Source: Candidatus Methanophagales archaeon (GTDB lineage: Archaea > Halobacteriota > Syntropharchaeia > Alkanophagales > Methanospirareceae). From it: a DNA stretch of 54,835 bases. Below, in pieces: positions 25,148-39,120 of the stretch. A program made the position numbers and the translations under genes. The DNA is taken from NCBI GenBank assembly GCA_013139985.1, contig WSZT01000164.1, positions 1 to 54,835 on the forward strand, written 5' to 3'. The notes below the pieces were generated by a model that saw only the letters and a program-made list of their open reading frames with translations, was not told the origin of the DNA and ran no database searches. How positions within the stretch are numbered: the stretch's first letter is position 1; every line of letters begins with the position of its first letter.

Positions 25148-26146
25148 ATGAAACACGAACAAGAGATAGAGCAATTGAATTCGCAGGCACGTGCATACTC
25201 GTCCAAATTAAATGATACCCTAAACGAACTAAAAAGAGTTATTGTCGGTCAGGAACTAGTATTGAGTAAATTGCTGATCTGCCTTATCGCCGAGGGGCAT
25301 GTTCTTCTTGAAGGTGTGCCCGGTCTGGCGAAGACATTAATGGTAAAGACGTTATCAGATACAGTATCAGCGCAATTCTGCCGTATTCAATTCACCCCGG
25401 ACCTGCTGCCTGCGGACATTACCGGAACGAAGATCTATGACCACCGGACAGCGAGCTTTAGCACGCAAAAAGGGCCCATCTTCAATAATTTCATTCTCGC
25501 CGATGAGATAAACCGGGCACCACCAAAGGTGCAATCCGCTTTGTTGGAAGCCATGCAGGAGCGGCAGGTGAGCATACAGGGCGAAACGTTCATGCTAGAT
25601 CGCCCGTTCCTGGTTCTGGCAACACAAAACCCCATAGAGACCGAGGGCACATACAAACTACCGGAAGCTCAAGTTGATAGATTCTCGTTTAAGCTGCTGG
25701 TTGACTACCCGAATAAGGACGAGGAGCGGGTAATAATCCAGCGGAATACGCAGGGTATTGTGCTAGCACCCGGTAAAGTCCTTACTGCTGGGGATATAAT
25801 CGAAATGCAACAGTTTAATCAAAAGATTTATGCCGATGAGAAGATAGAGGAATATGTTACAGAACTTGTAGATGCAACGAGGTATCCTGAGAATTATACG
25901 CTGGGGAGGGATATTAATGGTCTGATCGAGTACGGAGCTTCGCCAAGAGCGTCTATATGGTCTATTCTTACCGGTAAAGCGCACGCATTACTAAATGGTC
26001 GTGGCTATGTTATCCCTGAAGATATTAAAGCGGTCGTACATGATGTGCTCAGGCATCGTATAATTCTGACCTATGAAGCCGATGCAGAGGGCATTACTTC
26101 TGACCATATTATTGATATGCTTGTTGCGAATATCAAGGCGCCGTAA
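25148..26146 (+). CDS. MoxR-family AAA+ ATPase
   Basis: Contains VIVGQELVLSKLLICLIAEGHVLLEGVPGLAKT, ILADEINRAPPKVQSALLEAMQE and ATQNPIETEGTYKLPEAQVDRF. Confidence 0.9.
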   Translation: MKHEQEIEQLNSQARAYSSKLNDTLNELKRVIVGQELVLSKLLICLIAEGHVLLEGVPGLAKTLMVKTLSDTVSAQFCRIQFTPDLLPADITGTKIYDHRTASFSTQKGPIFNNFILADEINRAPPKVQSALLEAMQERQVSIQGETFMLDRPFLVLATQNPIETEGTYKLPEAQVDRFSFKLLVDYPNKDEERVIIQRNTQGIVLAPGKVLTAGDIIEMQQFNQKIYADEKIEEYVTELVDATRYPENYTLGRDINGLIEYGASPRASIWSILTGKAHALLNGRGYVIPEDIKAVVHDVLRHRIILTYEADAEGITSDHIIDMLVANIKAP

Positions 26147-27959: not shown

Positions 27960-30281
27960 TTATTCAGTGTTTTTATATGGACAGGCATCAGCAAATTTTA
28001 CAATATCTTCTCCGGAATTGTCCATAATACTAATATTCCACACATCGCGGTAGAAGTTTTTATGGGATTGAAATATCTTAACGGGAACCCCCTGTGATAC
28101 ACAAATGCCTGCCAAAAACATGAGTTGAGCATCGTGCATCTTATTATCGTTTGATCCTCTCTGCACACCCGCTAAATTAACTAACACCGCCCGAGCATTT
28201 ATTAGACTTTCCGCTAATCCCTCAGGAATAAAACATTGATCCAATATGTTAATAGCCACTTTTGTATAGCTGTACCTTTCCGTCAGTTTTCTTACCAGTT
28301 CTGTTTCATGATTAAATGACACTACATAAACTTCATTACTTTTATCCCTATCGTTTGGCGAATTAAAGTTATTAATATGCTTAAAAACTCTAGGTACCTG
28401 GTATAAATCGTTGATTTTATTATTGTTAAACTTTTCAGTTTTCCACCCTAATTTATCTGGGATTTCATCGACTGTTTGGTAGCTTTTATACAGTTGTTCT
28501 CCAAGTTTAGCTTTAATATCCTCAGATTTATCATCACATAAGAAAACAACCCTCCTTCCTAGTCCAAGAGCAAAACCGCATTCAAAAAATACGTTTGGAT
28601 TAAAATCTGATACTTCAGCGAGCATCCATAAATTTCTGAATACCTTTGGGCATACTTCATCACATAATACTCGACCCGTTTCTAGCTTCTCGGGCGTCGT
28701 CCACTTATCGGGCTCTACAGCAAGATTAAGCTTTTTAAGTTTGTTACCTAACACCTCAACAAACTCCTTTTTGCTAGCGGACGATGCCAAAAAAACGCCT
28801 CGTTTATTTAAGAACCGATCAGTACTACAGACACGATAAATAAAACTACAGTACCTGTCTGTTCTATAAATTCTTGGATTCTTCCATGGACGTCCATCAC
28901 CAACTATAGTTCTTGGATTAATGTGGTACGGTGCACCTTCCTTCATCTTTTTCCTCTCCCTGATTAGAGAATTAAGAATAGGATGAATTAGGTAAAAATC
29001 AGAGACTGGTAAGATCTTAGATTCAAAAATCTTGTCTCCGGGCCGCTCAAACTTTTGAATAATATTACCATTTTCTTCATCAATATCAACATAACCTAGT
29101 AATCCTACTTTATACAAATTGCAAAAAACATGATTTTTTTCACAGTTTTTCTGGTTGTTATATGTGCTGCATATTCCCTTTATTTCACTTTTGCTAAGTA
29201 TATCTGAATCTATTAAGTCGAACAATTCATCAAAAGGCCTAATAAAATCTAAAAAAGGTTTAGTTTCTGCTAGATATGTCCGCGCGATTGTTGTTGCTTC
29301 CCTGTTGACCACGGATCTTATATTTACTTCTGTCCGTTCATTGGGATAAATAGCAGCTAGAGCGCCCCCAATGACCATAAAATCTCTAGGTCGTTTTAAG
29401 GTATGACGATAAATATAGTCAAAAATATCCTCTTTTTGATTGTCAACTCGTGCATTTGCTATTTTGTTATCGCTTAACCCCAAGAAGGCGTAAATAAGAT
29501 CTTCATTAATAAAATTGGCGTTGACGAGGTCTTTCTTATTCATTCGTTTAATATTTTTTTCAAAGATGTCTTTTAGTTCTGATTTAGTATATCCAATATC
29601 TAATGCGCTTCCTTTTTTTTGCAATCCTATGGGATCATTTCTCAGTAATCTCTCCCACGCTTCTTTTCTAATAGATGCAAAAACTTTTATATGGCTGCTT
29701 TGTCCAGATAAAACCCAGATAGCATTGATTAATCCAATTTGAGCATTATACCAGAGTTCTGAAGATAAAACTCCTGTAACACTAGACCTTTCACCGTGTT
29801 GTCCTAAATGACCTCCAAAATATTCATCCACATTATCAATAAAAATTGCGACACCAGAACGAACTCGATTTAGGATCGAGGTTAGTCTATATTGTTTTCT
29901 TGCAATTTTAATGATACTGCTATGACTACGATCTAAAATATTTGTGAGATATCCAAAAGGTGTAACAAGCTGAGGGTCATTTACCATCTCGAGAATTTCG
30001 TCAGGAAGACTTCCAATCACTTTATTCAGTTCTTGTTCCTTTTCTTTATCCCCTTTCCGTTCATAACTTATTTTAAGAGTCTTAATGACGGACAAAGAAA
30101 TAGATAATAACCAAATATTGGTCCAATATTCAATGTTTCCTAATGCCTCTATTGTTTCAAAACTAAAGGTAAAAGCTTGTTGGGCTCTATCTAATGGCTC
30201 ATCCTTATGGATGAAATATATCTCCTCTTCTTGTAAATCTTTCTTATGTTTTTTTTGGTAGATGTATCGCTTATACATCAA
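27960..30281 (-). CDS. STAND/NACHT-like NTPase body (Walker B onward) with tandem C-terminal TIR/NDT-like Rossmannoid domains; lacks its own Walker A
   Basis: The 773-aa ORF lies in a visibly A+T-rich block. Walker B-like VAIFIDNVDEYF is followed by IKVFASIRKEAW. C-terminal motifs are GVFLASSASKKEF..NVFFECGFALGLGRRVVFL and VYVVSFNHE..LMFLAGICVSQGVPVKIF. Confidence 0.7.
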   Translation of the reverse strand: MMYKRYIYQKKHKKDLQEEEIYFIHKDEPLDRAQQAFTFSFETIEALGNIEYWTNIWLLSISLSVIKTLKISYERKGDKEKEQELNKVIGSLPDEILEMVNDPQLVTPFGYLTNILDRSHSSIIKIARKQYRLTSILNRVRSGVAIFIDNVDEYFGGHLGQHGERSSVTGVLSSELWYNAQIGLINAIWVLSGQSSHIKVFASIRKEAWERLLRNDPIGLQKKGSALDIGYTKSELKDIFEKNIKRMNKKDLVNANFINEDLIYAFLGLSDNKIANARVDNQKEDIFDYIYRHTLKRPRDFMVIGGALAAIYPNERTEVNIRSVVNREATTIARTYLAETKPFLDFIRPFDELFDLIDSDILSKSEIKGICSTYNNQKNCEKNHVFCNLYKVGLLGYVDIDEENGNIIQKFERPGDKIFESKILPVSDFYLIHPILNSLIRERKKMKEGAPYHINPRTIVGDGRPWKNPRIYRTDRYCSFIYRVCSTDRFLNKRGVFLASSASKKEFVEVLGNKLKKLNLAVEPDKWTTPEKLETGRVLCDEVCPKVFRNLWMLAEVSDFNPNVFFECGFALGLGRRVVFLCDDKSEDIKAKLGEQLYKSYQTVDEIPDKLGWKTEKFNNNKINDLYQVPRVFKHINNFNSPNDRDKSNEVYVVSFNHETELVRKLTERYSYTKVAINILDQCFIPEGLAESLINARAVLVNLAGVQRGSNDNKMHDAQLMFLAGICVSQGVPVKIFQSHKNFYRDVWNISIMDNSGEDIVKFADACPYKNTE

Positions 30282-30445
30282 AAAAGGGTTTTTCCGATAC
30301 CTTTTGGAGCAACGGCAAAATACATATTTTCTCTCTCTTCAGACTCAATAAATTCCTTTATGGCGGGCGTTATGACTAAATCCTCCGACGGATTTAGCTC
30401 CCCAACTTCGCCAATCCTTATCGCATCAACAATCCAAGGTTTCAT
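30278..30445 (-). CDS. 55-aa ORF carrying the Walker A (P-loop) that belongs to the downstream NTPase; separated from it by a frameshift
   Basis: Translation is MKPWIVDAIRIGEVGELNPSEDLVITPAIKEFIESEERENMYFAVAPKGIGKTLF*. The stop overlaps the ATG of the 773-aa ORF inside a T6 run (minus strand). Adding one T gives ..GIGKTLFLMYKRYIY.. in frame. Confidence 0.6.
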   Translation of the reverse strand: MKPWIVDAIRIGEVGELNPSEDLVITPAIKEFIESEERENMYFAVAPKGIGKTLF

Positions 30446-30559
30446 TTTATATTTCTCCTTATTTTCATCAATTTGTCGTGTGGGATAGTTTTATCAAAAT
30501 GTCGTATAAAATGGTCTTATAGCGGATGTTTTATATATAACTTTCGATTTTTTTTTGAT

Positions 30560-30587
30560 CAAACTTTTTTTTTGAAAAAAAAGTTTG
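30560..30587. terminator. perfect A/T-run palindrome downstream of the archease gene (candidate terminator or hairpin)
   Basis: Two 13-nt perfect inverted arms, CAAACTTTTTTTT and AAAAAAAAGTTTG, are separated by TG and flanked by a further T-run. The site lies about 55 nt past the archease stop. Confidence 0.35.
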
Positions 30588-30640
30588 CTGCGTAAGCCTT
30601 TTTCGGTAAAGCCTCTAAATTTTCTTTAGAAAAAGGGTTT

Positions 30641-31066
30641 TTAGACATCTAAAACGACTCTTGCCTTCCAAACCTCATTCTTCTTTACCTCCATCATGTT
30701 ATAGGTGACCGCTTTTATTATTATGCCGGATACATGTTTTGAGGGGTCGAATTTACCACCTTTGCATGTTCCCTGTATACTGAAATTGGATTCGTCTATC
30801 GCTATGTCAAAGGATCTCATAACTAGCGATTTCGAGTCAAACAAAAAAATCAGCTCGTCCAGCCAATCAAACATCAAGCTATAAAGGTCTTCGGAGTTTA
30901 TCTCTATTTCTCGCTCCTCCGCCCCCTCTATTTCGTCTACATCGGTCATGAGACTGTACATGGCAATAGCGGCATTAGCATAAAGCTCCTCTAACGTGTC
31001 GCCATACACCTCAAATCCGACATCCGAGGGATGCTCGATATATTTTATTTTCTCTTCTCGGTTCAT
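30641..31066 (-). CDS. archease (RtcB tRNA-ligase cofactor family)
   Basis: 141-aa ORF. Contains YIEHPSDVGFEVYGDTLEELYANAA and KAVTYNMMEV..ARVVLDV. Confidence 0.9.
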   Translation of the reverse strand: MNREEKIKYIEHPSDVGFEVYGDTLEELYANAAIAMYSLMTDVDEIEGAEEREIEINSEDLYSLMFDWLDELIFLFDSKSLVMRSFDIAIDESNFSIQGTCKGGKFDPSKHVSGIIIKAVTYNMMEVKKNEVWKARVVLDV

Positions 31067-31094
31067 TTCGGGGTTATGTTTTAGGTTTTAGGGG

Positions 31095-32732
31095 TTATGG
31101 ATTTGGTACTCTTTGCATTATCGCTCTGACATAATCGTCCGCGTTCAGATCAACGGTTTTGAACTCTGCGAATTTGCTCAATACGTGTTTTTCAATCTCC
31201 CTGAGCCCTTCTTCGGTCTTCGCCTCCATCCGTAGAATTATCACAGGCGATGTGTTCGAGTGGCGTACAAGCGCCCATCCGTTCTCCTTCACAAACTCTA
31301 TCTTCACACCGTCTATATCATTACCTCTTTCGTCTGTCCTTCGTTTATATAGCTCGGGGTTAGTTGCAGCAAGCTCACGATAATAGTCCTCTACGGCATC
31401 GCAAACACGCCCTTTCTCTTCATCGCTCACTACGGGGATCCTTATCTCCGGCGTGTTCACGTATCTCTTCAAGAAGTCCTCAAGCAGTACATCCACCACT
31501 TTCACGTCGCTTTTAGTCTCTGATTCCTTGGCAGTAAGCAGTAAAAGCTCGGAAAATGCGAATACCGCATCGTCTGCACGATTATTCTTCGCGAAATACA
31601 CATGGCCTGACATCTCACCGCCTGCAACTGCATTTAGCTCTTCCATCTTCGATTTGATAAACGAAAAACCCGTTTTCCACTCGACTGGCACGCCCTCATT
31701 CTCTATGATTATCTCTCGTATCGCATCAGAGCATTTTGTATCGTAAACGATTTTTGCATGATGATGCTCCTTTAAGATGTGCTTGCAGAGCAGAGCGAGG
31801 ATCTGTTCACCGATTATCATCTTTCCAGTCGGTGATATTGCACCTGCTCGATCACCGTCACAGTCGGAAGCCAGCCCAATATGCGCGTTCTTTCGCGCTA
31901 CTTCGGCATGTAAATCCTCCAGGAACCGCGGAATCGTTGGATCCGGCAGATGGTTAGGGAAATTGCCGTCCGGCTCGGAATAAAGCTCGAATACTTCGGC
32001 ACCCAAATCACGGAATAGCGGTGGTGCTATCACCCCCGTAGTTCCATTTCCAGCGTCATAAACGATTCTTAAGCCGGTCAACGGCTTCCTTTTGGCCGCC
32101 GGTAGCTTTTCTAGCTCTTGTTCCGCGATGGCAAGTGCGGCTCTTAAAGAACTCTTGCCCGCAAGAGCGTCTAATGTCAGTTCTTCCCATCTCTCGCGCA
32201 GTACAACGTTCGCAACAATCATCGCATGATAATCCGCCAGTACGTCCACCACTTCATGCTCGCCTTTAACACTGCTTACGTGCGTTTTGAATCCTTCTTC
32301 AAGCTGCTTCGCTGTTTGGAACATCTCTCGTATTTGGTCCTCTGTGGCGCTTTCTGTGCCAACACAGGGCTTGAATCCGTTCCATTCCTTGTCCAGGTGG
32401 CTGCCCGTGACTTCCACGCCGCCATCTGCATTGAATAGCCAAGTCGCGAAATACATTAGTGGCGTGGAGCTTACCTTTTCAGCAGGTGCTATGTCTATGA
32501 CATGGACACCTTTGCTCATAAGCGCGTCGGCAAAGGCGGTTTTCAATCGCGGCGAGCTGTTTCTGACGTCCTTGCCCACAACCACTCTTAGCTCTTGCGG
32601 CTCTTTACCTCGGTGCTTGCGCAGTAGCTCTACATATGCCAGCCCGGTCAGGGTGCAGAAGTCGTCACTGAGCTGGATGTCTGCTATGCCTCTTATATCG
32701 TTCGCACGATATGCGGTTTTATCTACTATCAT
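31095..32732 (-). CDS. alpha-D-phosphohexomutase family protein (phosphomannomutase/phosphoglucomutase-like)
   Basis: Contains VEVTGSHLDKEWNGFK (phosphoserine loop), ASDCDGDRAG (metal loop) and GGEMSGHVYF (sugar loop). Confidence 0.85.
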   Translation of the reverse strand: MIVDKTAYRANDIRGIADIQLSDDFCTLTGLAYVELLRKHRGKEPQELRVVVGKDVRNSSPRLKTAFADALMSKGVHVIDIAPAEKVSSTPLMYFATWLFNADGGVEVTGSHLDKEWNGFKPCVGTESATEDQIREMFQTAKQLEEGFKTHVSSVKGEHEVVDVLADYHAMIVANVVLRERWEELTLDALAGKSSLRAALAIAEQELEKLPAAKRKPLTGLRIVYDAGNGTTGVIAPPLFRDLGAEVFELYSEPDGNFPNHLPDPTIPRFLEDLHAEVARKNAHIGLASDCDGDRAGAISPTGKMIIGEQILALLCKHILKEHHHAKIVYDTKCSDAIREIIIENEGVPVEWKTGFSFIKSKMEELNAVAGGEMSGHVYFAKNNRADDAVFAFSELLLLTAKESETKSDVKVVDVLLEDFLKRYVNTPEIRIPVVSDEEKGRVCDAVEDYYRELAATNPELYKRRTDERGNDIDGVKIEFVKENGWALVRHSNTSPVIILRMEAKTEEGLREIEKHVLSKFAEFKTVDLNADDYVRAIMQRVPNP

Positions 32733-32816
32733 ATTTTTATTTGCTTTTTGTTAATTACGTTTTTGCTTTACATCTTCCCTCTATGTACTCAAAAAGCATC
32801 AATAACTACCAGTAGC

Positions 32817-34610
32817 CTAGATCGGGAGGTAGAATGGTTCTCGATCTAGACGATGAAGGATGTAGTCAGCGTCGGGGTATTTTTCTAATATTTTGTTTTT
32901 AAATTCCTCCGCTTTATCTAAGCTATAAAAAATCCTTCCTACTTCCACTAATGCTCTATCATTTCTACGCCTTAAAGCCTCATTTAGCATCATATTTAGT
33001 CTCTTATCCGCTTCTTCTAATCTCCCTAACCTCTTCATTACGTTAAAATATACAGATGGTTTTTCATCAAAAAGTTTTTTTTCTGTAACCCCACCGTCAT
33101 CAAGCAGTTCTAGCATTTCTTGCAACGTACCTGCTTTGAATTTGAACATAACTTCTACTTTTTTCACTCGTAAGGATATATCCATATCAATAATATCAGA
33201 ATAATTCTCGAATAATTCCATAGCATCTTCAGGACGCTCCTTCTTAATATAAATATCGAGAATTTCTCCAAGAATTTCACTTTTTTCTTTAATCACGTCT
33301 AAAAGTCGAAGATAGTGCTCTAAAGCCATTTCCGATTTATCATACTTCTTATACGCTTCAGCTAATCTCCTCTCAACTGCAATCATATCCTCGGGATTTA
33401 ATTCGAGATATTTTTCTACTATTGCTAATTCAAACTCTGGCTCTTCCCGAGAGGATAATTCCCAGTTCATAAAAAGAGAAACGTATTTTGATAGTGTCTT
33501 AGGATTGTCAATTCCAAAAGTCATCCATAAGTCTTGAAATGCACCTAATATCTTTTTCCTCCCAGCATTGCGGAGGATATAGAAATCTATGAGCGTTTCA
33601 AGACTTTTTGGGTGCGAATAAGTTAGCACCAGTCCTTCCAATTCCTCTTGTGCTTTATCCGGATGGTCTAACAGGTTAGCAGTGATTTCTTTTAGGATAC
33701 TGTCAAGTTTTGGTACAATAACAGTATTAGGTATGATTTTTGAAAACAGTATTAGATAATCCCGTAATAAATGTGTTTCTTTAGTAACCCCTTCCTCGCC
33801 TATTCTCAAGGACTCTGATAATTCCAATTTTCTATCAGAGTGAAGTATACAAATATCCTGAACATTTAACTGGCTCTCTAAATCTTCTACTGGCTCGTTT
33901 AGAAAATGTTGTATATCCCCTATTATTTGCCTTTCTATTACTTTATCTTTTTCTTCTTCTGGAAAAGGAATACGGGTAAGCGCAAAAGTTACCCCTATTG
34001 GCTTTTGTCCGGGCAATCGTTCAACTGCCTGGATACTGCGGAGTATCTGACGTGCGCCCTCAATATTTTCTCGATTGTTGACGATTAGAAACACTACTTT
34101 GTCAGGCAAAAGGGACGTGCATAAACCGCTCATCTCTGTTACGCCTGTTCTGGAATCTATAAGTAGAAAATCAGGGTTAAATTCTTTCCTTATTCTCTCC
34201 TTTAGTTCAAGAAAGAAAGGGAGACCTTCGCTGTATTCTTCATAAAACAATTTGTGCCAATTTATCGCTGCTAATTTTCGCCAATAACCTGCAGAAAGGA
34301 CATCACCTGCGGGAATCAATCGGATTTCGCCCTGGGTTTTTGATGGATGAATAAGTTCCAATGTAAATTCATCTAATGATTCTGGAATGACTTTATTATG
34401 CATAAATTCAGATATGTAGTCCACCAAACCCTTCCTAATATCTGTTGTTTTGACGAGTTGTGGGAATTTGTAATGAAGTCCAGGCGCCTCTAAGTCGAAG
34501 TCCATAATGCAAACATTTTGACCAAAGCGGGAAAGATAAATCGCAATGTTCGCTAAAGCTAATGTGCGTCCAACCCCTCCTTTATATGAATAGAAAGTTA
34601 TTGTTTCCAT
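32817..34610 (-). CDS. KGGVGR-variant ParA/MinD-like (SIMIBI) ATPase fused to a TPR-like helical-repeat C-terminal half
   Basis: Contains ITFYSYKGGVGRTLALANIA, a deviant Walker A with Arg in place of the usual Lys. Also MDFDLEAPGL and FLLIDSRTGVTE (Walker B). The C-terminal roughly 300 aa are helical and repeat-like. Confidence 0.8.
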   Translation of the reverse strand: METITFYSYKGGVGRTLALANIAIYLSRFGQNVCIMDFDLEAPGLHYKFPQLVKTTDIRKGLVDYISEFMHNKVIPESLDEFTLELIHPSKTQGEIRLIPAGDVLSAGYWRKLAAINWHKLFYEEYSEGLPFFLELKERIRKEFNPDFLLIDSRTGVTEMSGLCTSLLPDKVVFLIVNNRENIEGARQILRSIQAVERLPGQKPIGVTFALTRIPFPEEEKDKVIERQIIGDIQHFLNEPVEDLESQLNVQDICILHSDRKLELSESLRIGEEGVTKETHLLRDYLILFSKIIPNTVIVPKLDSILKEITANLLDHPDKAQEELEGLVLTYSHPKSLETLIDFYILRNAGRKKILGAFQDLWMTFGIDNPKTLSKYVSLFMNWELSSREEPEFELAIVEKYLELNPEDMIAVERRLAEAYKKYDKSEMALEHYLRLLDVIKEKSEILGEILDIYIKKERPEDAMELFENYSDIIDMDISLRVKKVEVMFKFKAGTLQEMLELLDDGGVTEKKLFDEKPSVYFNVMKRLGRLEEADKRLNMMLNEALRRRNDRALVEVGRIFYSLDKAEEFKNKILEKYPDADYILHRLDREPFYLPI

Positions 34611-34622
34611 GATGAAACCACC

Positions 34623-35249
34623 TTAACAGCCCACGGGTAATATTTGCCCCCTCACAGCGATTTGTTTTTGATGCTTTTTTATAGCATCTATTGGATATGT
34701 GCTCTCTACGCCGAGAAATCTATCCTTCCACGTTTCTTCTTGATTATCTCTTATCTGATTTTCTAATTCTCTCAGTTTTTCTCTCTCCTCTTTACAGTTT
34801 TCAAGAATATCAATCGCCATTTTTTGCATTTCGGGATTCCGCATTACCTGTTCTAATTTCATTAAATCAATAGTCACGGACTCAGCCGCATCAAGTTTTC
34901 CTTCAGGAATCAACTCTCTTTTAGCTCTCTTAAGATATTCTAACAGCACATCATCAGTAGCATATTTCAACCCTTCTCGCAATTTCTCAAAAGATGGTAA
35001 CTCAATACCTTGAGTTTTTTTTGTTTCAATATATGCCTCTTTGAGAAATTTGACTGTTTCGTTTATGCTATTAAGACTAATAGCACACTCTTCAAAGCCA
35101 TATGAATGAATGGCCTTTGATAAGTCTTTTATTGAAACTTCAATCTGATCTGAAGTAGTATAGGGCGGTCGTAATAAAAATAATTTTTCCTCTTTTTCAA
35201 TAAACCCCCATCCATCCTTTGGAGCGGTGGCCATGATCTTAATTTCCAT
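34623..35249 (-). CDS. hypothetical helical protein, middle gene of the three-gene operon
   Basis: 208-aa ORF. It overlaps the upstream gene by 11 nt and ends 12 nt before the ATPase gene. A Glu/Lys-rich coiled-coil-like segment lies near the C-terminus. Confidence 0.55.
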   Translation of the reverse strand: MEIKIMATAPKDGWGFIEKEEKLFLLRPPYTTSDQIEVSIKDLSKAIHSYGFEECAISLNSINETVKFLKEAYIETKKTQGIELPSFEKLREGLKYATDDVLLEYLKRAKRELIPEGKLDAAESVTIDLMKLEQVMRNPEMQKMAIDILENCKEEREKLRELENQIRDNQEETWKDRFLGVESTYPIDAIKKHQKQIAVRGQILPVGC

Positions 35250-36096
35250 TTTCGTCTATTACCTCCACTCGAATCCCTTGGTTATGTAAAAGATCACGCA
35301 TATTAATAAAATCCTCTAGCCAATATCTTTCTTCAGCATCTGATAATTCAGAAATGATGGCTTTATATAAGTCATTCTCGAAACGATTTAAAACACTTTT
35401 CCTCATTCGTACACTCTCTATATGTATATTTTTGATTTCGCCTTTCGTTATAGCTTCAATATAACATTCATTGCTACAGATCATAGATGCCAATTCATCA
35501 AAAGGAATTCCTCCTATTTCATTTTCGTGTTTAAGAGCTACCAAAGCAGGTACACATTCTCTATTTGCAGTATCTCGAGATAACCGTTCAACGTTCACAG
35601 AATTTTCTTCGACATATTTGAGACTATCCTCTTTAATGAATGCTAACGATGAATATTCTTTTGATTGTTTTCGTTTAATTATAACACAATATTCTCCGAA
35701 CTTTTCTGGACCGAATCCTCCGATGTTTAAAGCACCATACTTAAATTTTTCAGCACATTCAAAGGTGCTATTAAAAATCTTCCTCTCTTTTTTATGGTTT
35801 TTTAATTGCAAATCCATTGCAGTTTCATATGATATTCCTATTTTTCTTTTGCCCTTTAACTCTTCTATTCTTTCCTTTGTAACTTCATATCGGTTTTTAT
35901 ATACCCCTTCAATTAAAAAACTAATTAATACCCCTTGCCTAATATTTATCGAAATAGTCGGTTTATTCCTCATAAAGTCAATAAAATTTTTAAATATATC
36001 TAAATTATTTTGATTCTCATGCTTCTCTTTCAATAACTTATGTCGGGTTTTTAGATTATCCGAATTTTGATCTGCCATATCAAATATGTTCTTCAT
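35239..36096 (-). CDS. hypothetical protein, first gene of the three-gene operon
   Basis: 285-aa ORF with no motif I can assign. A conserved-looking core is KYGALNIGGFGPEKFGEYCVIIK..SLAFIKEDSL. A TATA-like TTTATAAA lies about 40 nt upstream, near 36134-36142. Confidence 0.55.
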   Translation of the reverse strand: MKNIFDMADQNSDNLKTRHKLLKEKHENQNNLDIFKNFIDFMRNKPTISINIRQGVLISFLIEGVYKNRYEVTKERIEELKGKRKIGISYETAMDLQLKNHKKERKIFNSTFECAEKFKYGALNIGGFGPEKFGEYCVIIKRKQSKEYSSLAFIKEDSLKYVEENSVNVERLSRDTANRECVPALVALKHENEIGGIPFDELASMICSNECYIEAITKGEIKNIHIESVRMRKSVLNRFENDLYKAIISELSDAEERYWLEDFINMRDLLHNQGIRVEVIDENGN

Positions 36097-36240
36097 ATCT
36101 TCCCCTCAAAGTGATTAATAGAACAATTTTTCCTTTTATAAACTTTTTGGTGGATAGATAAAAGACCAGAAATTGGAAAACCTAATTCAGACATTTATCC
36201 TCCGAGTTCTTGTTTTTATTTTTATTTTTGCTGGAAAAGA

Positions 36241-36612
36241 TTATAGGGTCGCTTTATCATGCACAATTGAAATAAACACAAAAAAAAATCCACCGATTTT
36301 GAGCAGATACATATATATTGCCCATGCCAGAAAGAATCGCCGATCTAAAAATAGCGTGTGAATGCACTGCGCATGCTGAGATACCAGTAACTGTGGGATC
36401 GCTACATTTACCAGAGAGACAAGCGATCTGCACACAAAGATGTCAGTAACAGTGAGGTTGTCGCTTTCATCAGAAGGGCGAGTAATGAATAACTGTTGTT
36501 TTTGCTGACCCTTGACATGAGCAGTAGCCCGCATGTTTTCACTATATAGAATCTTTACTGTTTTCTTCTTGTGCTTAAGCCCCCAATCGTACAGATATGT
36601 ACCTTGAACCAC
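36241..36612 (-). CDS. doubtful ORF; if real, a small protein with a C-terminal hydrophobic helix
   Basis: 123-aa ORF. The C-terminal FFLAWAIYMYLLKIGGFFFVFISIV runs into an A/T-rich non-coding-looking tract. Confidence 0.25.
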   Translation of the reverse strand: MVQGTYLYDWGLKHKKKTVKILYSENMRATAHVKGQQKQQLFITRPSDESDNLTVTDIFVCRSLVSLVNVAIPQLLVSQHAQCIHTLFLDRRFFLAWAIYMYLLKIGGFFFVFISIVHDKATL

Positions 36613-36683
36613 ACTGTTTATCGCCCCTCACTCGTTTTTACCCGAAGGTGCAAGGTCGCTAAAAAGCGAAGCGAATATGAACG

Positions 36684-37175
36684 CTACAACCTGCAATCAT
36701 ATACGACCTCATCTGCGTTTTCTATCACAAATCCTTTTATCGCTTCTAACTCCGGACATGGTTCAAATCGGTCTTCTGTCCTTTTTAATACCTCTTCTGC
36801 GGTTAGCACCGGTGCCATCCTTATATAATCCAGGACATAATGCAAGTACCACGCCTTCACGTATTCGCTCCCTTTTTCTCGCATGAATAATAGCTGAAGA
36901 TACTTTGGGATTTTCATTATCATATTAAAATCATGGCTCTTCGCCAACTGTATGATTATTTCTTCTCCATCACGCTCACAGAACAGTATAAACTCTGGGC
37001 TCTTTTCTGGGAAGTCACTTAAATGATTCACAAAGTCTGTGGTTTCTCTGGTTAGCTCCATCTTCGCCGCCCATTTATTATGGATCTCCCACTTTGGCAT
37101 AGTTCCTGATAAACCGTTTTGCAAGCAAAAAGCTTTACCAAAATTTTTATCACATAACATCACATCACAACTCAA
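36684..37175 (-). CDS. hypothetical protein
   Basis: 163-aa ORF overlapping the upstream gene by 11 nt; an alternative start is the Met in MPKWEIHNKW. I cannot assign a family. Confidence 0.5.
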   Translation of the reverse strand: MSCDVMLCDKNFGKAFCLQNGLSGTMPKWEIHNKWAAKMELTRETTDFVNHLSDFPEKSPEFILFCERDGEEIIIQLAKSHDFNMIMKIPKYLQLLFMREKGSEYVKAWYLHYVLDYIRMAPVLTAEEVLKRTEDRFEPCPELEAIKGFVIENADEVVYDCRL

Positions 37176-37932
37176 TGAAGTGCATCTTCTGCATCCAGAT
37201 ACTTACTGCTCTACGCGCCTGTTCAGGATTCGCGAAATTATCTTCTATTGCTTCATCCGTGGAAATGCCTATAAAGGGGTCTATTGTAGACTTCCCCACA
37301 TCGGCAACCCATATCATCGCGTCACTAACGTCATGCCCCCGGAAGAACGAGATAAAAGGTGCGGGTGTCTTCTCTGTTGGAACAACGATCACCACCTCTT
37401 CCGCGGCTTCTGACCGCTCTAATTGGCGCTCGTCAGCAAAATGTGGCACAAAAGTAATCGAAGGTAAAACGAAGATGTGTATGCTTCTGTGTTCATCTTT
37501 ATTCTTCACCGCTATCAACTCAAGATGCTCCTCTTCACCTCCACCTTCGTTCACCTGATACCCACAGCGTTCCAAAAACGATATTAGCACGCTTTTTAGC
37601 GCACTTATAGGGCTTCGTAGCTCAGCCCAACGTAAAAACGCAGCTTCCAGTTCCTCACTCATATATCCATGTGTTGGCAAGCAGTAAAATATCTCGCCCT
37701 GATAGTTTATCCGGGTATGCATGTCAGGCGAGAAAACAGAAAGTTTCTCTTCGCTAGTTATGCTCTTGAAGATCATATCTTCCGGATCACCGCCAAATTT
37801 ACTCGCTAACTCGTCCCTATCGGCATCGCTTAGCGCACTTACACACTCGCTTATCTTCAACGCGAGTTCTCCTTCTGATATTACCTTATGCTCCTGACAG
37901 TAGCCCGAAAGGTATTCAAATATTTTTAACAT
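37165..37932 (-). CDS. hypothetical protein
   Basis: 255-aa ORF with normal coding composition. The acidic-linker-then-beta-rich C-terminal half (HLELIAVKNKDE..VVIVVPTEK) could be nuclease-fold-like, but this is unproven. Confidence 0.55.
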   Translation of the reverse strand: MLKIFEYLSGYCQEHKVISEGELALKISECVSALSDADRDELASKFGGDPEDMIFKSITSEEKLSVFSPDMHTRINYQGEIFYCLPTHGYMSEELEAAFLRWAELRSPISALKSVLISFLERCGYQVNEGGGEEEHLELIAVKNKDEHRSIHIFVLPSITFVPHFADERQLERSEAAEEVVIVVPTEKTPAPFISFFRGHDVSDAMIWVADVGKSTIDPFIGISTDEAIEDNFANPEQARRAVSIWMQKMHFIEL

Positions 37933-37998
37933 CTCTTGCCATCTTCATAGTATAAATATTTCTTTGGTAAAGCTTTTAAAACTTTTTGGTAGAAGAAA

Positions 37999-39120
37999 AT
38001 GAGAAGCAAATTTGCGGGACGTATAAAGAACATAGAGATTTCCGGTATAAGGAAGGCATTTGAAGCTTTGTCCGGTGATTTTTTCAACCTCGGACTCGGT
38101 GAGCCCGACTTTGATACCCCAGAGCACGTAAAAATCGCCGCTGTGCAGGCATTAAAGTCAGGATTTACCTCATATACATCAAATAAAGGTATAGACGAAC
38201 TGAGAGAGGCGATAAGTGCTAAGCTCTACCATGATAATAACCTCGCCTTTAGCCCTGATGAGATGATAGTTACATCCGGTGCGAGTGAAGCGTTACATAT
38301 CGCTATCCATTCAGTCGTTGAAAGAGGGGATGAAGTGCTAATCCCGAATCCAGGGTTTGTCTCTTTCGCTGCACTGACGGAACTGGCCGAAGGGAAACCG
38401 ATAGGGGTCCCTTTAAGTGACGACTTTTCGATCTCCGCGGAAGCGGTAAAAGAGAGAATTACAGATAAGACAAAGGCACTCATAATAAATTCACCTGCTA
38501 ATCCTACGGGCGCTGTGGAAAGCGGGGAGAACATAAAAGCGCTTGTTGACATCGCCCATGACCATCATGTAACTATCATTTCTGATGAGGTCTATGAGCA
38601 GCTTATATACGATGACTTGAAGCACATAAGCCCCGCGAGATTCTCTGACGATGTCATCACGGTAAATGCAGTCTCAAAGACATACGCAATGACCGGCTTT
38701 CGATTGGGTTATGTTGTCGCTCGCAGCGAGTACACGGAGCAAATGCTAAAGGTGCATCAATATGTCCAGGCGTGTGCATCATCGATATCGCAGAAAGCGG
38801 CGTTGGCCGCTATTGCAGGCCCTCAAGACTGCGTGGTAGATATGAGAAGCGAGTTCAAAAGAAGAAGGGATTTCGCTGTTTACGCTCTTCATGATATGGG
38901 TATGAAGTTCAAGATACCAAAAGGCGCATTTTATATCTTTCCTCGGGTGAGCGATGAGCATGAATTTGTGGAGTCTTTGAAGCGGAAACGGGTAATTGTC
39001 ACGTCGGGATCTACCTTTGGAAGTCGTGGTAAAAATCATGTGCGAATATCGTATGCTACGAGCTTAGCTAATTTGAAGCACGCTTTTGATATAATGAAGG
39101 GAATTGTAAGAGGGGATTGA
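37999..39120 (+). CDS. class I/II pyridoxal-phosphate-dependent aminotransferase (aspartate aminotransferase-like)
   Basis: Contains LGLGEPDFDTP, IINSPANPTG and NAVSKTYAMTGFRLGY, which holds the PLP-binding Lys. Confidence 0.9.
   Translation: MRSKFAGRIKNIEISGIRKAFEALSGDFFNLGLGEPDFDTPEHVKIAAVQALKSGFTSYTSNKGIDELREAISAKLYHDNNLAFSPDEMIVTSGASEALHIAIHSVVERGDEVLIPNPGFVSFAALTELAEGKPIGVPLSDDFSISAEAVKERITDKTKALIINSPANPTGAVESGENIKALVDIAHDHHVTIISDEVYEQLIYDDLKHISPARFSDDVITVNAVSKTYAMTGFRLGYVVARSEYTEQMLKVHQYVQACASSISQKAALAAIAGPQDCVVDMRSEFKRRRDFAVYALHDMGMKFKIPKGAFYIFPRVSDEHEFVESLKRKRVIVTSGSTFGSRGKNHVRISYATSLANLKHAFDIMKGIVRGD

Follow-up and report, generated by a model that had tools for sequence, protein, structure and literature searches.

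A three-gene cassette of a predicted ADP-ribosyltransferase-fold protein, a coupled partner and a KGGVGR-variant ParA-like ATPase: a candidate conflict module of archaea and bacteria

Introduction

What is a small, A+T-rich block of three genes doing amid the core housekeeping genes of a Methanophagales archaeon? The block lies in a stretch of 54,835 nt (positions 1 to 54,835 of contig WSZT01000164.1, assembly GCA_013139985.1, Candidatus Methanophagales archaeon), hereafter named the window. It consists of genes A, B and C, all on the minus strand. A first-pass annotation, made from the sequence, had taken them for a candidate uncharacterised conflict or defence module built around a ParA-like ATPase. 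We report here that A, B and C form one real module, found in archaea as well as in bacteria. We propose, and give the proposal an even chance of being right, that they are a horizontally exchanged three-gene conflict module, of the toxin/defence type, organised around an effector with an ADP-ribosyltransferase (ART) fold and working by the mechanism outlined in the Discussion. Other explanations are weighed below, each with the evidence that bears on it.

Results

The three genes recur together in distant lineages

Hidden Markov models of A, of B, of the N-terminal domain of C and of its C-terminal region were scanned over 59 fetched loci (designated below by L numbers). In essentially every locus that extends far enough, A, B and C occur in this order on one strand. 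The A/B overlap, 11 nt in the window (35239-35249), is again 11 nt in about 38 of 46 non-redundant loci. In all loci with room for it, B comes after A, the distant L056 being the one exception, and C follows B in 29 of the 33 non-redundant loci that have at least 700 nt beyond B, at a spacing of 2-23 nt and once of 126 nt (in the window, 12 nt, 34611-34622). This junction geometry is kept even where A is only 22-26% identical to its counterpart in the window (L017, in SAR324, and L054). Look-ups anchored on divergent homologues of C found A, or an A remnant, and B directly upstream in 6 cases out of 7. The nearest relatives are metagenome-assembled genomes (MAGs) of Methanophagales (ANME-1); other hosts of the cassette are further Halobacteriota MAGs, Altiarchaeum, Theionarchaea, SAR324, Aminicenantes, Poribacteria, Desulfobacula, Nitrospirae and Kapabacteria, and the flanking genes are unrelated between lineages. 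A, B and C form one real module, and chance juxtaposition is excluded: the co-occurrence elsewhere on which the idea of a module depended is borne out in dozens of loci, with the same order and junctions between unrelated flanks. From their arrangement, the three genes look co-transcribed and translationally coupled, and co-inherited across archaea and bacteria.

Departures from this organisation were found. First, A and B stand without C in L001, L018, L030 and L034, and B lacks its usual C-terminal tail there. Because the tail is missing in loci without C, this hints that it may be the link to C, with L003, where B is short yet C is present, as a counter-example. Second, A is disrupted by a frameshift, an interruption or an internal deletion while B is intact in L008, L018, L019, L053 and L059; C is also intact in these loci wherever it is present and readable.

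Both departures are points in favour of a selfish toxin-antitoxin (TA) or addiction cassette with an accessory ATPase, akin to tripartite toxin-antitoxin-chaperone systems, with A as toxin, B as proteinaceous antitoxin and C as regulator or stabiliser. Such a cassette would persist through post-segregational killing or stress-induced growth arrest, and not through antiviral immunity. The tight coupling of A to B by a conserved overlap, the A+B pairs lacking C and the repeated decay of A with B retained all agree with it, as do the sporadic distribution, the allele exchange described below and neighbourhoods that are mostly not defence islands; TA operons are also known in variable hotspots of ANME-1 (PMC13385816). 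However, in about 88% of loci A+B are accompanied by C, whose hypervariable repeat domain is more sensor-like than chaperone-like, and a search of plasmids, common carriers of addiction modules, gave no copy of the cassette. Moreover, TA function and abortive infection are compatible, since DarTG does both (PMC9967889), and this explanation is not exclusive of defence. We regard it as unlikely, if worth keeping in mind.

Several individual loci deserve description. In L019 (1256-2104), a metagenomic contig, A is 98% identical to that of the window and its frame is interrupted near codon 117, B (78%) and the N-terminal domain of C (90%) being open; the interruption may be genuine, making A a pseudogene, or come from faulty assembly. 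In L059 (5001-10081), all that is left of A is an 85-aa remnant in which the N- and C-terminal ends are joined, B is intact, and a 777-aa homologue of C is directly followed by a 904-aa LRR-Roc-COR GTPase. In the bacterial loci L001 (8827-11087) and L018 (7280-9161), A precedes a B-like protein reduced to the first 155-161 residues of the B family, which in L001 are fused to a different C-terminal part. The place of C is then taken by a signal-peptide/membrane protein, of 443 aa and without Pfam match in L001, and of 415 aa with FG-GAP repeats in L018. L001 also has an NYN-domain gene upstream and an HNH gene downstream.

The sole match in a cultured organism was found in Brevibacillus brevis (CP030117, 3889524-3905251; L007), where a homologue of C, 46% identical, occurs without A and B. 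It is preceded by genes for a 277-aa, a 150-aa and a DUF6575 (171-aa) protein, and HNH nucleases, an SRA-HNH protein, an AAA_15/AAA_21 ATPase and a serine recombinase are encoded nearby. A remote relationship of the three preceding genes to A or B was rejected (hhalign probability below 1%), and this locus may represent a KGGVGR switch paired with a different effector set.

C is a KGGVGR-variant ATPase distinct from partition proteins

Residues 1-194 of C match the NCBIfam family NF047398, "KGGVGR-motif variant AAA ATPase", with 166 bits for a cut-off of 90 (E = 1.2e-48, profile positions 2-190 of 190). The motifs YSYKGGVGRT, DFDLEAPG and LLIDSRTG start at residues 7, 37 and 149, the first being encoded by nt 34563-34592 (residues 7-16). 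More than 120 full-length homologues were found, and KGGVGR[T/S], DFDLEAPG and LLIDSRTG are invariant in 95-99 of the 99 that were aligned. At position 15, where a canonical Walker A has Lys, Arg is found in 95 of the 96 homologues aligned, and the signature Lys is kept. Because the signature Lys is retained while the catalytic P-loop Lys is replaced by Arg, C is likely to bind ATP, with hydrolysis slow or absent. An earlier study had noted MinD/ParA-like domains "predicted to be inactive" in NTP-dependent conflict systems (Kaur et al. 2020, PMC7159879).

The closest Pfam and PDB sequence matches of C are the P-loops of ParA, MinD and Soj. ParA/MinD-family ATPases typically adjoin a small partner gene. 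These two points, together with the largely housekeeping neighbourhoods, speak for a ParA-type positioning or assembly system, in which C would localise a cargo, B would be a partner like ParB, MinE or McdB, and A would be the cargo or a DraT-like regulatory ADP-ribosyltransferase of a housekeeping target. The family scores go the other way. Identification of C as a partition ParA or as MinD was rejected: it scores 18.9 bits against the 180 of ParA_partition, 29.3 against the 201.75 of MinD_arch and 24.6 against the 212.9 of MinD_bact, with only about the first 40 residues aligned, and it stays far below every ParA, MinD, BcsQ and VirC1 equivalog cut-off of NCBIfam. The near-universal Arg at the Walker A Lys position is a further point against such a role. 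No ParB, MinE or other known partner was recognised among the neighbouring genes by Pfam and NCBIfam, and a repeat search over 32700-36800 gave no centromere-like array and no terminal repeats around the cassette, only short chance-level matches. No conserved cargo or pathway genes lie nearby, and a patchy distribution, low GC, allele swapping and an often broken A are unexpected for a housekeeping function. A positioning system is therefore the explanation to which we give least credit. The identity of C as a KGGVGR-variant ParA-like ATPase without ParB or centromere-like partner, claimed from the sequence at first, holds on both counts: C passes the NF047398 cut-off and fails those of ParA and MinD, and neither the family scans of neighbouring genes nor the repeat search gave a partner.

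The ParA-like domain with its conserved extension reaches about residue 290 and is followed by a repeat region, from about 300 to 597. Almost no conserved columns were seen over residues 300-597 in the 99 homologues, and the length of the whole protein ranges from about 300 to 777 aa through variation of this region, which is shortened in L017, L042, L045, L047, L050 and L053. The first-pass annotation had described it as about 300 aa of TPR-like repeats. A helical, variable region is indeed present, but its TPR character is weakly detectable: the C-terminal half of C has no Pfam TPR match at E <= 0.1, residues 390-468 align with designed consensus TPR proteins (E = 1.8e-4), and the homologue in L059 carries canonical TPR_12 repeats in the equivalent C-terminal region.

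Residues 2-197 of C also match the PADLOC model PDC-M28B (E = 4.9e-30), over model positions 129-323 of 438 only. PDC systems are candidates identified by "guilt-by-embedding" in BREX, DISARM and type I restriction-modification (R-M) loci (bioRxiv 10.1101/2024.01.29.577857). The word "uncharacterised", applied to the module at first, needs to be qualified in this respect: the pairing with A and B appears undescribed, but the ATPase clade has an NCBIfam name and a domain-level match to PDC-M28B.

A has a predicted ART fold

Protein A has no match in Pfam, NCBIfam, PADLOC or PHROGs. Its relatives form 51 clusters by word-indexed search, and 618 representative clusters by exhaustive profile search (E <= 1e-3); nearly all are stand-alone proteins of 260-300 aa. 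In 63 diverse members no recurring Pfam family was found, and no curated ART family matched at E <= 1. Two profiles of the family (A1 and A3), compared with PDB sequences, gave nothing relevant.

The AlphaFold2 model of A, built on a 33-sequence alignment, has a predicted local distance difference test score (pLDDT) of 90.3 and a predicted template modelling score (pTM) of 0.87. When it was compared with the PDB by Foldseek, the best 20 of 20 matches were NAD+-utilising proteins of ART fold. SopF is a top-level match (E = 7.2e-6, probability 1.0, template modelling (TM) score 0.46), and OspC3 (5.5e-3), CopC, CteC and Tpt1 are further ones, as are the DarT proteins of Thermus, E. coli and M. 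tuberculosis (DarT E = 5.9e-3). A thus has a confidently predicted ART-like fold, which is one of the toxin-like folds that the first-pass annotation had suggested looking for in the 285-aa protein.

The same model gave 16 matches at E <= 1e-3 in BFVD, including phage polyvalent proteins and proteins of iridoviruses and granuloviruses. ARTs are the commonest enzymatic domain of phage polyvalent proteins. The ORF28 family of iridovirus and granulovirus groups was described as DarT-like by Iyer et al. (PMC9503650); the BFVD matches may or may not be members of it.

Near-invariant positions in the broad family are N51, N68, R105, F108, Y120, N124, G126/127/129, G134, C137, S158, K189, C207, E214 and R230; of these, R105, Y120, S158 and E214 are each kept in 90% or more of its members. 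The core KYGALNIGGFGPEKFGEYCVIIK begins at residue 119; it was found as quoted at first, as were the three motifs of C. In the model, a long loop precedes E214, which opens a predicted strand, a placement consistent with that of a catalytic ARTT-type Glu. The order and spacing of N51, R105, Y120 and E214 resemble those of H13/N19, R51, Y71 and E160 of DarT (PMC9967889). We infer a correspondence between these residues, no canonical H-Y-E or R-S-E triad being verified in A.

The lack of a verified triad also bears on whether A acts as a toxin at all. An ART-fold protein might instead inactivate small molecules, as Arr does with rifampicin, carry out repair in the manner of RNA 2'-phosphotransferases, or be a dead enzyme sensing NAD+ or ADP-ribose, and the cassette would then serve resistance, repair or signalling. 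Archease is an RNA-ligase cofactor. The occurrence of Tpt1 among the structural matches and the position of the cassette two genes from archease in ANME-1 are in line with such a role. However, this linkage is seen only in ANME-1 and is absent elsewhere, and an RNA repair link of the archease/Tpt1 style was rejected since the archease synteny is confined to that lineage. The best structural matches, SopF, OspC3/CopC, DarT and CteC, are toxins or effectors, the placement of the near-invariant Glu would suit a catalytic Glu of the ARTT type, and the repeated loss of A, with B and, where present, C kept, suggests that A is costly. A non-toxin role of A appears improbable to us.

B is a conserved partner

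Relatives of B form 69 clusters, and the protein has no match in Pfam, NCBIfam, PADLOC or PHROGs. The claim that the two upstream proteins resemble no recognisable family was correct for A as for B, and neither matches a metabolic family. B is built of a conserved N-terminal alpha/beta domain (residues ~1-80) with the signature APxDGWxF...LLRPPY, a helical region, and a variable C-terminal tail (~160-208). Its AlphaFold2 model (pLDDT 83.8, pTM 0.51) had nothing significant among PDB structures by Foldseek, the best E-value being 0.18.

Alleles are exchanged at a fixed site in ANME-1

The site of the cassette is the same in related MAGs, with the order orf163/DUF6834, A B C, phosphoglucomutase (PGM) and archease. 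Between L012 and the window, the flanking proteins are highly similar (aminotransferase 96% identical, DUF6834_C 90%, orf163 87%, PGM 95%, archease 84%), and the cassette is less so for A (60%), B (63%) and the C-terminal region of C (65%), with 85.5% for the N-terminal domain of C. Synonymous divergence (dS) from L012 is 0.50-0.72 in the cassette and 0.15-0.24 in DUF6834_C and PGM, a two- to fourfold difference, archease being at 0.46. Because the synonymous divergence of the cassette exceeds that of DUF6834_C and PGM, the comparison points to replacement of alleles, or to recombination, at a fixed locus, and not merely fast protein evolution. Relative to L011 the reverse is seen for A, with a dS of 0.08 versus about 0.2-0.5 in the flanks. 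Taken with the unequal identities of A, B and C in L019 given above, these sequence comparisons show mosaic exchange.

All parts of the cassette are under purifying selection, with ratios of non-synonymous to synonymous divergence (dN/dS) of 0.10-0.66. Relative to L011 the values are 0.37 for A, 0.37 for B, 0.10 for the N-terminal domain of C and 0.66, the highest, for its C-terminal region. The rows for orf163 of L012 and A of L019 were left out as alignment artefacts due to frame interruptions.

In L012 (4623-6868), and also in L020, a 2.2-kb insertion between orf163 and A replaces window positions 36153-36282. It encodes an EcoRV-family restriction endonuclease (PF09233, 9e-80), a D12-class N6-adenine methyltransferase and a small retropepsin-like aspartyl protease. 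ANME-1 genomes have been reported to diversify at hotspots carrying R-M and TA genes (PMC13385816). The hypervariable alleles at one fixed site, their mosaic make-up and the R-M system beside the cassette of a relative are consistent with a conflict locus.

Layout, composition and surroundings of the cassette in the window

The features of the cassette are collected in Table 1. The three minus-strand open reading frames (ORFs) had been described correctly at first, with regard to length, position, overlap and gap. A TATA-like box is present upstream of A as well, at the distance given in the table, where about 40 nt had been noted. An Rfam scan of 30000-38500 gave no non-coding RNA match.

Table 1. 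Features of the A-B-C cassette, in window coordinates.
Feature	Position	Strand	Basis and reading
Gene A, 285 aa	35239..36096	-	ORF call; predicted ADP-ribosyltransferase-fold protein, putative effector/toxin
Gene B, 208 aa	34623..35249	-	ORF call; putative adaptor or antitoxin partner
Gene C, 597 aa	32817..34610	-	KGGVGR-variant ParA/MinD-like ATPase with variable helical, weakly TPR-like C-terminal region
TATA-like box TTTATAAA, archaeal-type promoter candidate	36135..36142	-	Read from sequence; starts 46 nt upstream of the A start codon
GAGGGGA ribosome-binding site	36101..36107	-	Read from sequence; 4 nt upstream of the ATG of A
C residues 1-194, ParA/MinD-like P-loop domain	34029..34610	-	KGGVGRT, DFDLEAPG, LLIDSRTG
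C residues ~301-597, poorly conserved helical repeats, putative sensor/interaction domain	32817..33710	-	Alignment

The A+T richness and the Lys/Asn/Ile bias that had drawn attention to the block are borne out by its numbers. Its GC content is 0.353 versus 0.433 for the whole window, its GC content at third codon positions (GC3) is 0.25-0.32 versus 0.46-0.52 in PGM, phenylalanyl-tRNA synthetase (PheRS) and aminotransferase, and Lys, Asn and Ile make up a fraction of 0.29 in A versus about 0.16 in the flanking genes. These low values relative to host genes are consistent with a foreign origin. Core archaeal housekeeping genes surround the cassette (RNA polymerase B and A', PheRS, F420-dependent enzymes, PGM, archease, aminotransferase), which, as a low-GC block amid them, is therefore read as a small insertion within a conserved chromosomal region.

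Other genes of the window were recorded. Upstream of the cassette (36684..37932, minus strand), a 255-aa DUF6834_C protein and a 163-aa protein without family match (orf163) are encoded by genes that also overlap by 11 nt (37165-37175) and are 87-90% identical in ANME-1 relatives. A second low-GC gene (27960..30281, minus strand; GC 0.351, GC3 0.295) encodes a 773-aa protein whose N-terminal part resembles the Sll1717-family P-loop ATPase of NCBIfam, at 60.9 bits, below the cut-off of 75; residues ~562-587 give a short match to the nucleoside 2-deoxyribosyltransferase fold. Because this gene lacks a counterpart in the 2.4 kb beyond archease of the syntenic L011 and L012, it is probably a separate, strain-specific insertion of conflict type, two genes away from the triad. 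Finally, a MoxR-type AAA_3 ATPase (PF07726, 1.4e-64; 25148..26146, plus strand) has no adjacent vWA gene, being followed by the PheRS alpha gene; MoxR-vWA pairs belong to conflict systems in which MinD/ParA-like domains were described.

Discussion

A proposed mechanism, and how far it goes

If A, B and C are indeed a conflict module of the toxin/defence type, to which we gave an even chance, they could work as follows. A would be an NAD+-dependent enzyme that ADP-ribosylates a macromolecule, either a nucleic acid, as DarT does, or a protein, as SopF, OspC3 and CteC do, with E214 together with R105 and Y120 as candidate catalytic residues. B, made in fixed proportion to A by way of the conserved overlap, would bind A and keep it inactive, or link it to C. 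C would bind ATP and act as a nucleotide-dependent dimerising switch, whose variable C-terminal repeats may recognise a trigger, be it a protein of a virus or other mobile element or a stress signal. The trigger would release or activate A, resulting in growth arrest or killing of the infected cell (abortive infection).

A number of results weigh against this proposal. It is predicted structure, and that alone, which ties A to ARTs, with moderate TM-scores (0.46 to SopF); profiles of family A gave no ART match among Pfam families and PDB sequences, and R105 is placed in a predicted helix, whereas the Arg of R-S-E ARTs is on a strand. The fold of B is not that of a macrodomain, NADAR or ARH, and no antitoxin fold was recognisable among the Foldseek matches listed. 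With Arg in place of the Walker A Lys, C could be unable to cycle nucleotide at all. The link with defence is also thin. The 149 flanking ORFs of 23 loci are mostly housekeeping, with sporadic defence-type neighbours (PtuA/AriA-like ABC ATPases, methyltransferases, DpdF, PsyrT, ShosA, HNH), and enrichment in defence islands is weak and not established. Relatives of A were not found on IMG/VR viral contigs, in GenBank phage records or on PLSDB plasmids; A and B match no PADLOC v2 model, and PDC-M28 as defined is not present.

The initial suggestion of a candidate conflict or defence module is supported by the co-occurrence of the three genes, the non-partition ATPase and the predicted ART fold of A, with defence as a putative function. 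A more specific version, that the triad is a new and widespread antiviral or abortive-infection system, in which the new ART family A is held by B and released by a C switch sensing invader proteins, is a tentative one, which we consider possible though doubtful. If true, it would place a SIMIBI-class nucleoside triphosphatase (NTPase) in the role that STAND NTPases have in other immune systems, and would add a new ART clade, possibly directed against nucleic acids like DarT.

What the cassette adds

The kind of system proposed here is already known, namely NTPase-regulated toxin/defence modules with an ART effector, and the ATPase clade of C has been named before. What appears to be undescribed are families A and B, the obligatory pairing of these two with a ParA-like protein of the KGGVGR kind, and their occurrence across archaea and bacteria: in the literature no description was found under 'KGGVGR' or 'PDC-M28', nor of MinD/ART/TPR three-gene systems, nor of the pairing itself. 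If our reading is right, family A, with its 618 representative clusters and no Pfam model, would be a new family of predicted ADP-ribosylating enzymes. The KGGVGR-variant clade, so far known only from its NCBIfam name and from comparative-genomic remarks, would gain a working hypothesis, that of a nucleotide-dependent sensor or switch for toxin release. The cassette would also be a cross-domain conflict system, present in ANME-1 archaea, which are uncultured methane oxidisers, and in Altiarchaeum, SAR324, Aminicenantes and others, lineages in which few defence systems are defined. Its site in ANME-1 is a clear natural example of exchange of cassette alleles between conserved flanks.

Comparison with known systems

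The nearest comparison for A and B is DarT-DarG. DarT proteins are among the fold matches of A, a polar residue, Arg, Tyr and Glu come in the same order, the toxin gene is tightly coupled to that of its partner, and the distribution is patchy and mobile. In contrast, A matches no Pfam family, that of DarT included, B has no match to a macrodomain or NADAR hydrolase, and a third gene, C, is nearly always present. Type II-like TA systems resemble the cassette in a more general way, A and B being adjacent, translationally coupled and inherited together.

For C, the systems described by Kaur et al. (2020, PMC7159879) share the conflict setting and the predicted reduction or absence of hydrolysis, and its N-terminal domain is a bona fide member of NF047398. 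There, however, the partners of the domain, by fusion or association, are vWA-MoxR/VMAP, kinase or AP-ATPase components, whereas C is a stand-alone protein with a variable helical repeat tail, paired with A and B. PDC-M28 of PADLOC (Payne et al. 2024) is alike in that the ATPase domain of C matches M28B, and the clade has thus been seen embedded in known defence loci; it differs in that the match is partial and that A and B match no PADLOC model. C and the ParA, MinD and Soj proteins have in common the SIMIBI P-loop fold, the deviant Walker A signature Lys and the DxD and hhhhD motifs, but in C the canonical Walker A Lys is Arg and about 300 aa of repeats are added.

Finally, SopF, activated by an ARF GTPase, and OspC3 and CopC, activated by calmodulin, are ART-fold enzymes that are inactive until a partner protein binds. 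They are secreted virulence effectors acting in eukaryotic cells and have no sequence similarity to A; they are nonetheless among its best fold matches, and their partner-dependent activation would parallel the proposed control of A by B and C. By analogy, the activation of SopF, the best structural analogue of A, by a small NTPase makes this control logic plausible.

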